Of a stretch of DNA of 19,220 nucleotides, positions 1 to 1,752 are shown one piece after another. Source of the DNA: a virus (taxonomy: Duplodnaviria > Heunggongvirae > Uroviricota > Caudoviricetes). Below the pieces are notes generated by a model. That model did not search any database. It saw only the letters and a program-made list of their open reading frames with translations, and was not told where the DNA came from. Made by a program: the position numbers and the translations under genes. Where the stretch lies: IMG/VR virus record IMGVR_UViG_2778261559_000018; one strand, given 5' to 3'. Positions within the stretch are counted from its first letter, which is position 1; each line of letters begins with the position of its first letter.

Positions 1-6
1 GTCCGT

Positions 7-1752
7 CTATATCAGATGGGCGTCTAAGTTACCAATTCTCGTCTGATGGCTACATACGGCGGTCAGTTTACGCTTACCAGCATTTTCAGCATTACGTCGT
101 TTCTGTTGCTCCTGATAATTCCGCTCTGCCTGCTCTTTTGCATCCTGCAAATCCTTCTGGCGTTTTTTCTCCTGAAGATCGTTAAGACGCTGCTGATCGT
201 ATTCAACCTGAGAAGATGATGCCGTCCAGGGGAGTCTTTTCGCCCGCGACACTTTCTCCTGTAAAGCGGTAATCTGTTCATCCAGCGAGTCTTCACGACC
301 AATATTCATGGCCGCATCCCAGAAACGACTCCACAAATCAGACAGATACTTCAGCGTACTGCCAAGCGCATTGAGGTTATTATCAATATCCGCAGTACGC
401 CGACCGGTTTCCTCTGCCAGTGCAGACATGGCTATCCGTGCAGCATCACTGGACCGTCCCTGATCCCCAAGGACACGTATCTGCTCAAGCTGAGTGGCAG
501 TAAGAAAATGCAGCTCATTGTCCAGAGCCTTCGCGGCATTTACAGGATCATCCTTCAGCCGCTTAAACTGATTTATGGTATCGCTGACCGACTGGCCAAC
601 CGATCGCTCCATCTGTGCGGCAGCTCTCGCCACCATACCGATATCGTTTCCACGAAATGCACCACTCCCCACCACCTGCGCCAGCGCACCGGCTGCAGCA
701 TGTTGCGTGATACCATTCCCGGAAATAGCACGACTGAGCGTCCACAGCTGCCCGGCAGTGACTCCGGCATAATGCCCCGTCAGCGACAACTGGCGGTTAA
801 ATTCTTCCCCCTCCTTCTGACCGTCATACCAGGCTTTACCCAGACCATAGACGGCCGCGGCAATACCGCCAATAACCCCGCCAAGCATCATGCCTTTCGG
901 TGACATCAGTGTGTCTATCCATCCGGCACGGTTAGCCAGCGTTATCCCGGATCCCCTCAGCACCCCTAAATTGCCGCGGGCCAGTTCACCTATCAGAACG
1001 CCTATCTCCTGGCGGGCTGCTGCACTTTTCAGACCCAGCGAATGCGTGGCTTTTCCTGCCTGCTCCATTTTGCGGATATACACTTCTGCAGCACTGCTTA
1101 CCCCCAGCTGGGCTGCCTTGGCACGAAGCAACTCAGAAGATGAAAGATTCTGGCGGGTTGCCTGCTCTTTAAGCTGACGGATAAACGCCACTTTCTGTCG
1201 GGTAGCCTCTTCCTCAGCCTGTGTAAGAACACGGGTTTTCGCAGTAACCTCAGAAATCAGCGCCAGATAATCCTGCTGACCAATCCCGCCACTGTTTCTG
1301 GCCTGTCGGATCTGCTGCTGAATACGCTGTAATTCCTGCAGCCCCGCACTGGCCTGTTTCACACTGTCAATCTGACGATAAAACGCAGCAGCCGCTTTAT
1401 CCTGAGCCTCCGCCAGAGCCATGGCCTGCGCCTGTTCCTCGCGCATTTTCTGGCTCAGCGCCTCCATGCGCTGGCGGGTTTTCTCCACCTCGCGGGCCAT
1501 GCGTTCATGAGCCTGTGCGTTCTTCTCCACCGTCTGCGCATGGACGGATGCGGCTGTTGCAGCCGAAGAAGTCGCCTGCGTTGTCTGCCGGGCGGCCTGA
1601 GTCTGACGCTCCATAAAACGCTGCATACGGGCAGACGACCGTTCTGCATCGCTGGCGGCACCATTCAGAAGGTTTTTGATACGGGGAATTTCATTTTTAA
1701 ACTCTGCCGCATCAATCCCCAAATCAATGACCAGGTTGGCTATCTGGTCCAT
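7..1752 (-). CDS. Tail tape measure protein (lambda gpH-like), 581 codons from ATG 1752; ORF ends at in-frame TAG at 7-9, possibly truncated or disrupted at the window edge
   Basis: Long minus-strand ORF directly downstream of the G/T chaperone genes; N-terminus MDQIANLVIDLGIDAAEF resembles the lambda H N-terminus as remembered; Ala/Gln/Arg-rich coiled-coil middle; GGAGG about 9 nt upstream of ATG 1752. Confidence 0.8.
   Translation of the reverse strand: MDQIANLVIDLGIDAAEFKNEIPRIKNLLNGAASDAERSSARMQRFMERQTQAARQTTQATSSAATAASVHAQTVEKNAQAHERMAREVEKTRQRMEALSQKMREEQAQAMALAEAQDKAAAAFYRQIDSVKQASAGLQELQRIQQQIRQARNSGGIGQQDYLALISEVTAKTRVLTQAEEEATRQKVAFIRQLKEQATRQNLSSSELLRAKAAQLGVSSAAEVYIRKMEQAGKATHSLGLKSAAARQEIGVLIGELARGNLGVLRGSGITLANRAGWIDTLMSPKGMMLGGVIGGIAAAVYGLGKAWYDGQKEGEEFNRQLSLTGHYAGVTAGQLWTLSRAISGNGITQHAAAGALAQVVGSGAFRGNDIGMVARAAAQMERSVGQSVSDTINQFKRLKDDPVNAAKALDNELHFLTATQLEQIRVLGDQGRSSDAARIAMSALAEETGRRTADIDNNLNALGSTLKYLSDLWSRFWDAAMNIGREDSLDEQITALQEKVSRAKRLPWTASSSQVEYDQQRLNDLQEKKRQKDLQDAKEQAERNYQEQQKRRNAENAGKRKLTAVCSHQTRIGNLDAHLI

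Follow-up and report, generated by a model that had tools for sequence, protein, structure and literature searches.

In Escherichia coli RDEC-1/DEC10F, the lambda-type tape-measure gene of a lambdoid prophage resembling Qin has almost certainly been interrupted by transposition of a 2,532-bp ISEc23-like element of the IS66 family, and the beginning of this element forms the left edge of the window, that is, of the whole 19,220-nt stretch of DNA that was analysed. The IS inserted after codon 558 of 1,021 (window 77/78), duplicating the 8-bp target AAATGCTG, and translation of the 5' half passes into the IS terminal repeat, where it meets a TAG after 23 codons, yielding a product of 581 aa. The disruption of prophage structural genes by IS is commonplace, the event is of an already-known kind, and public databases already contain both the 581-aa protein and the IS. 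The features at the left-hand end of the window are as follows.

1–77, minus strand: first 77 nt of the IS66-family element (ISEc23-like), a 100% match to ISEc23 copies
7–9, minus strand: TAG stop of the fusion ORF, inside the IS (IS nt 69–71)
7–1752, minus strand: truncated tape-measure ORF, 581 codons plus TAG, comprising 558 native and 23 IS-encoded codons
78–85: one copy of the 8-bp target-site duplication, CAGCATTT on the plus strand and AAATGCTG on the minus strand
78–1752, minus strand: native 5' part of the tape-measure gene, codons 1–558 and the first base of codon 559
1724–2053, minus strand: tail assembly chaperone gene T, upstream of the tape measure (annotation of NZ_CP074764.1, Pfam)
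2062–2448/2451, minus strand: tail assembly chaperone gene G, upstream of the tape measure (annotation of NZ_CP074764.1, Pfam)

The C-terminus of the 581-aa protein is encoded by an IS

The translated ORF runs on the minus strand from ATG 1752 to TAG 9–7 (CTA on the plus strand), in agreement with the initial annotation, which had described an ORF stopping at the window edge after about 581 codons. The ORF listing also contains an upstream TTG at 1782, which gives 591 aa; ATG 1752 was taken as the start because the same start is annotated in a 100%-identical homologue. The C-terminal end of the 581-codon ORF reads ...LTAVCSHQTRIGNLDAHLI, and its final residues before the stop are ...NAENAGKRKLTAVCSHQTRIGNLDAHLI. 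The sole Pfam match of the 581-aa ORF was TMP_2 (PF06791) at residues 228–426 (170.6 bits against a cut-off of 30.2; E 5e-50), and the domain search did not find the lambda-type C-terminal domain (TIGR01541/PF09718) in this ORF. The upstream G/T region contains the Pfam domains Phage_TAC_2 and Phage_tail_T. The earlier designation of the ORF as gpH-like thus proved apt, as it carries TMP_2, lies just downstream of the G/T genes, and has an intact homologue that aligns with lambda gpH (8iyk_H, E 2e-48). The gene is a member of the lambda-type tape-measure family, and the product encoded in the window is a truncated 5' fragment of it. The T ORF overlaps the start of the tape-measure gene by 29 nt. 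In lambda, a G–T fusion is made by a programmed −1 frameshift.

Window 1–2100 was compared by megablast with phage records and 5,426 complete E. coli genomes, and tape-measure homology, found in 1,829 E. coli and 17 phage records, always set in precisely at base 78. Window 78–1752 aligned without gaps, at 97–100%, to intact tape-measure genes encoding 1,021 aa, which were found in E. coli prophages and in phages mEp460, cdtI, and phi458. The alignment to intact tape-measure genes that the initial annotation had called for thus gave a match from base 78 rightwards only. The best comparator was the bovine strain B1_2 (NZ_CP074764.1), with 100% identity over window 78–2100 and 99.94%, ungapped, over window 78–14100; its tape-measure gene has 3,066 nt, encodes 1,021 aa, and is followed by M, L, K, I, J, lom, a tail-fibre gene, tfaQ, and pinQ.

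Window 1–78 matched copies of an IS66-family element at 100% (E 9e-32). These bases recur at thousands of unrelated chromosomal and plasmid sites in E. coli, and at the annotated sites they are the tnpA-proximal end of an IS66-family element labelled ISEc23, inserted in IS2, in mqo, and in stf of lambda variants. The tape-measure gene and the IS have just 1 nt in common at the junction. The odd C-terminus that had been pointed out is thus real, since the bases encoding it match IS66 copies in full and tape-measure homology ends exactly where they begin. The 23 foreign residues at the end of the ORF, GKRKLTAVCSHQTRIGNLDAHLI, are translated from the IS terminal repeat and the tnpA leader. At least one stop codon is present in each of the three minus-strand frames within positions 1–60, as had also been reported.

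The annotation of these matches bears on another reading, namely that a deletion had joined the tape measure to stf, the side-tail-fibre gene: in Lambda_4C10, 4A7, and D2, bases 1–78 match at 100% under the label 'side tail fiber protein'. However, what these bases hit is the end of an IS66-family element that interrupts stf and is flanked by the duplication TATAATGG, so the match is to the IS and not to stf. The fusion was rejected outright, as the lambda variants carry the same IS inside stf. The element in these variants is 99.9% identical to the present one, has the same orientation relative to the late structural gene, and is accompanied by its own 8-bp duplication; the variants are phage records carrying the insertion in stf, whereas the target here is the tape measure. 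stf is dispensable for lambda plaque formation, whereas the tape measure is essential.

Of the options left open in the initial annotation, namely an unusually short tail or disruption of the gene near the edge by a deletion, a frameshift, or an insertion, the last is supported, with an IS66-family element at 77/78; the naturally short protein is not, as the homologues have 1,021 aa. A 581-aa tape-measure protein with an unusual C-terminus could be argued from the 581 open codons and from the deposition of exactly this protein as EHX01388.1 from E. coli DEC10F. However, its last 23 codons and stop lie within a mobile element known from thousands of unrelated sites, homologues that are 99–100% identical have 1,021 aa, and the missing half is intact behind the IS, leaving this reading a probability barely above nil. 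Three contigs carry precisely this 581-aa protein, and a 558-aa version labelled 'partial' is found on a 19,063-nt contig of RDEC-1 (10f).

A complete IS66-family element is flanked by an 8-bp duplication

The part of the ISEc23-like element lying in the window consists of the terminal inverted repeat, GTAAGCGTAAACTGACCGCC..., and the tnpA leader. The inverted repeat begins at window base 77 and is read leftwards, and the element exits the window in that direction, with the ATG of tnpA 9 nt beyond base 1. The full element, at 11676–14207 of the DEC10F locus (L005), has 2,532 bp, and both of its ends open with GTAAGCGT..., in keeping with the IS66 inverted repeats GTAAGCG; the first 8 nt of the two repeats are identical, and further matches extend to about 24 nt. 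The sequence AAATGCTG is directly repeated on either side of the IS in the DEC10F locus. When the DEC10F flanks were aligned to the empty site of B1_2, two blocks overlapping by exactly 8 bp were obtained.

The genes of the element are arranged in the order tnpA–tnpB–tnpC, with tnpC encoding the DDE transposase. TnpA matched the NCBIfam model IS66_ISRel24_TnpA with 83 bits (cut-off 74), TnpB matched IS66_TnpB with 106 bits (cut-off 50), and TnpC matched transpos_IS66 with 452 bits (cut-off 180) and contained the Pfam domains LZ_Tnp_IS66, zf-IS66, DDE_Tnp_IS66, and DDE_Tnp_IS66_C. An 8-bp target duplication is reported to be the signature of IS66 (PMC6778807). The inverted repeats, the 8-bp duplication, the three-gene order, and the DDE domain expected of the IS66 family at the sequence level were all found in the present element.

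The element resembles ISEc23 in its length of 2,532 bp, its GTAAGCG... repeats, its 8-bp duplication, and its tnpA–tnpB–tnpC order. Three other copies showed 99.4–99.9% nucleotide identity to it, a figure that refers to copies labelled by PGAP as 'IS66-like element ISEc23 family' and not to the ISfinder type sequence, and each of the three has its own 8-bp duplication (AAAACGAT, TATAATGG, and AATGCTTC). Compared with ISEc23 copies elsewhere, the insertion site alone differs. Because near-identical copies occupy thousands of different sites, each with a duplication of its own, the element is probably able to transpose.

The target AAATGCTG lies within a short native direct repeat, AATGCTG AA AATGCTG (window 78–100; minus strand ...GTAATGCTGAAAATGCTG, ending at the junction). 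The target of the copy in mqo, AATGCTTC, resembles AAATGCTG, maybe by chance.

The rest of the tape-measure gene and the tail genes are intact behind the IS

The window itself covers 77 nt of the IS, and its left flank is known from a different assembly, made from the same strain or from a nearly identical one. The contig AIGU01000004.1 (397,701 nt; E. coli DEC10F, RDEC-1) is 100% identical to window 1–11752 and continues past the window edge with tnpA, tnpB, tnpC, and then a 459-aa ORF carrying TMP_4 and Tape_meas_lam_C (TIGR01541, 287 bits), which is followed by M, L, K (NlpC/P60), I, J, and lom. In silico removal of the IS and one duplicate restored an ORF of 1,021 aa whose sole difference from the B1_2 protein is V264A. 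The C-terminal lambda-type domain is thus present in both the displaced 459-aa piece and the reconstituted ORF. The tape-measure gene is split without any deletion, and its 3' half and M-L-K-I-J-lom are intact past the IS.

Inspection of the sequence to the left, as the initial annotation had proposed, thus revealed the IS, the 3' half with its C-terminal domain, and then the tail genes. That annotation had also named the findings expected of an undisturbed gene, namely a natural stop, tail genes M, L, K, I, and J following it, and homologues of the same length. The tail genes do follow, but only past the IS and the displaced 3' half, and neither the natural stop nor homologues of equal length were found.

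An IS-associated deletion or rearrangement might have occurred in the window's own genome, with the distal half and the tail genes lost or moved, e.g., by recombination between IS66 copies. The window stops 77 nt into the IS, short of its own left flank; a second IS66-family end at 19144–19220 offers a substrate for IS–IS recombination, and such deletions are documented for IS66 (PMC6778807). However, the DEC10F contig, at 100% identity over 11,752 nt including the junction, contains a simple insertion with matching 8-bp duplications and intact downstream genes, and the two IS66-family ends of the window belong to different elements, one ISEc23-like and the other ISEc22-like, so that a deletion is considered very unlikely.

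The junction of the tape-measure gene and the IS is present in at least two independent assemblies (GCA_000250095.2 and GCA_002467385.1), and NMKO01000081.1, a related contig, extends 127 nt into the left IS. The junction was absent from the complete E. coli genomes (0/5,426) and was found neither in the IMG/VR contigs nor among the GTDB species representatives; it was seen solely in draft assemblies of DEC10F/RDEC-1-like strains. This distribution points to a recent insertion confined to one lineage. The junction could alternatively be a chimera, produced when the assembler wrongly joined two sequences through a common k-mer; the window does resemble a short-read contig ending in repeats, with 77 nt of IS at each end, and no closed genome contains the junction. 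However, its recurrence in independent assemblies, one of which covers the IS from end to end, together with a perfect target duplication of 8 bp that is not expected from a misjoin, and the single nucleotide shared by the native gene and the IS at the junction make a chimera exceedingly improbable. Transposition into the tape-measure gene is thus retained as the explanation.

Both ends of the window lie in IS sequence and the prophage carries further insertions

Two further IS were found towards the right-hand end of the window.

17658–18915: complete IS3-family element of 1,258 bp, labelled ISEc31, with TG...CA ends and orfA/orfB
19144–19220, right edge: IS66-family terminal repeat of exactly 77 nt, the tnpC-proximal end of an ISEc22-like element; GTAAGCGTGCAGC...

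The ISEc22-like repeat at the right edge, which reads GTAAGCGTGCAGCAAGAACCGTATTGACGG... and has thousands of copies in E. coli, breaks a ydfT-like (Q-type) antitermination gene at 19143/19144; the far side of this element and its target duplication fall outside the window. The ISEc31-labelled element is inserted in the same antitermination gene, is flanked by a 3-bp target duplication (ACG, 17655–17657 and 18916–18918), and corresponds to an empty site in B1_2. Window 11197–17658 and 18916–19143 are collinear with the B1_2 locus at 99.97–100%. The prophage thus has at least three IS insertions, and its head, tail, and lysis genes are otherwise free of indels relative to the uninterrupted relative. 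The two insertions in the antitermination gene reinforce the earlier suggestion of prophage decay.

A de Bruijn assembler run with k=77 leaves exactly 77 nt of repeat at repeat boundaries. Because exactly 77 nt of IS repeat are present at both ends, the window is read as a whole k=77 short-read contig, and it is probably bounded by IS copies and not an arbitrary slice. By coordinate arithmetic, the DEC10F contig would end at about window base 13,459, which means that this record is not the source of the window. The stop at the window edge would be explained by the contig breaking, probably, 77 nt into a repeated IS. As the ISEc23 end has stops in three frames within 77 nt, any gene interrupted in this orientation would seem to stop at the contig edge. 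An ORF that ends at the edge of a short-read contig thus often marks a repeat, in this case an IS.

Consequences for the tail and for the annotation of the 581-aa protein

[quoted passage not shown] The intact 1,021-aa homologue aligned with lambda gpH (8iyk_H) over its N-terminus and residues 296–1019, and its residues 986–1016 matched the gpH fragment resolved in the tail tip (9e7m_Ha). The residues matching 9e7m_Ha are missing from the 581-aa product, which lacks 463 C-terminal residues and, with them, TMP_4, Tape_meas_lam_C, and the terminal helix. Compared with lambda gpH (853 aa), the uninterrupted gene shares the C-terminal INNDGTNGQIGPAALK... segment and has the same position, after the G/T chaperone genes and before M, L, K, I, and J, whereas the version in the window is cut at residue 558 and followed by 23 foreign residues. 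From its length, the intact 1,021-aa version would be predicted to give a tail longer than that of lambda.

We propose the following consequences of the insertion. The 581-aa product, which keeps TMP_2 and lacks the tip-docking C-terminus, should be able neither to seed nor to measure a tail; tail assembly would then be lost in this prophage, which would presumably be unable to form infectious particles on its own. The insertion may also exert polarity on the genes downstream of the IS. Since a scan of the IS for consensus promoters and terminators detected nothing beyond shuffled expectation, polarity on these tail genes is presumed rather than observed.

EHX01388.1, labelled 'tape measure family protein', and the partial calls clustered with it thus represent the 5' fragment of an IS-disrupted pseudogene and not a short variant of the tape measure, and the 581-aa protein is unfit for inferring tail length or for defining a new C-terminus.

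The IS and the phage late operon point in one direction, and the TAG of the fusion ORF lies 14 nt upstream of the ATG of tnpA, a spacing that is a fixed feature of the IS end, independent of this insertion. It is conceivable, if very doubtful, that late transcription on induction might enter the IS and boost transposase by translational coupling, tying IS66 transposition to induction, and that rare precise excision could restore the gene. Neither read-through into tnpA nor precise excision is needed by any observation.

The prophage is a relative of Qin with a complete set of structural genes

The prophage shares cspB, cspI, ydfT, ydfU, rem, hokD, essD, ydfR, rrrQ, rzpQ, gnsB, and ynfN, located beside its structural genes, with Qin (Kim) of E. 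coli K-12, and tfaQ and pinQ are on the far side in the comparator strain B1_2. Window 78–19143 represents a full-length Qin relative, also carrying ynfQ/R/N, and its structural genes comprise a complete terminase, portal, ClpP-protease/capsid-fusion, and tail set. Qin of K-12 has lost most of its head and tail genes. The prophage in the window, in contrast, retains the full head and tail gene set, and its decay has proceeded through IS insertions and not through deletion. The Qin-like prophage of the rabbit enteropathogenic E. coli (EPEC) RDEC-1/DEC10F thus has a complete structural set but is crippled by three IS, of which two lie in the antiterminator gene and the third in the tape measure, and this damage bears on whether RDEC-1/DEC10F can release the phage.

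The calls for DUF1441 and the large terminase (window ~8618–11283) differ between the two assemblies, with 100 and 643 aa in DEC10F (L005 725–3135) against 175 and 699 aa in the other assembly (L006 500–3135), despite the two differing by one base in 11,752. In the window, the long terminase and DUF1441 ORFs are open (699 aa and 185 aa). The shorter calls in DEC10F look like a difference in gene calling and not damage.
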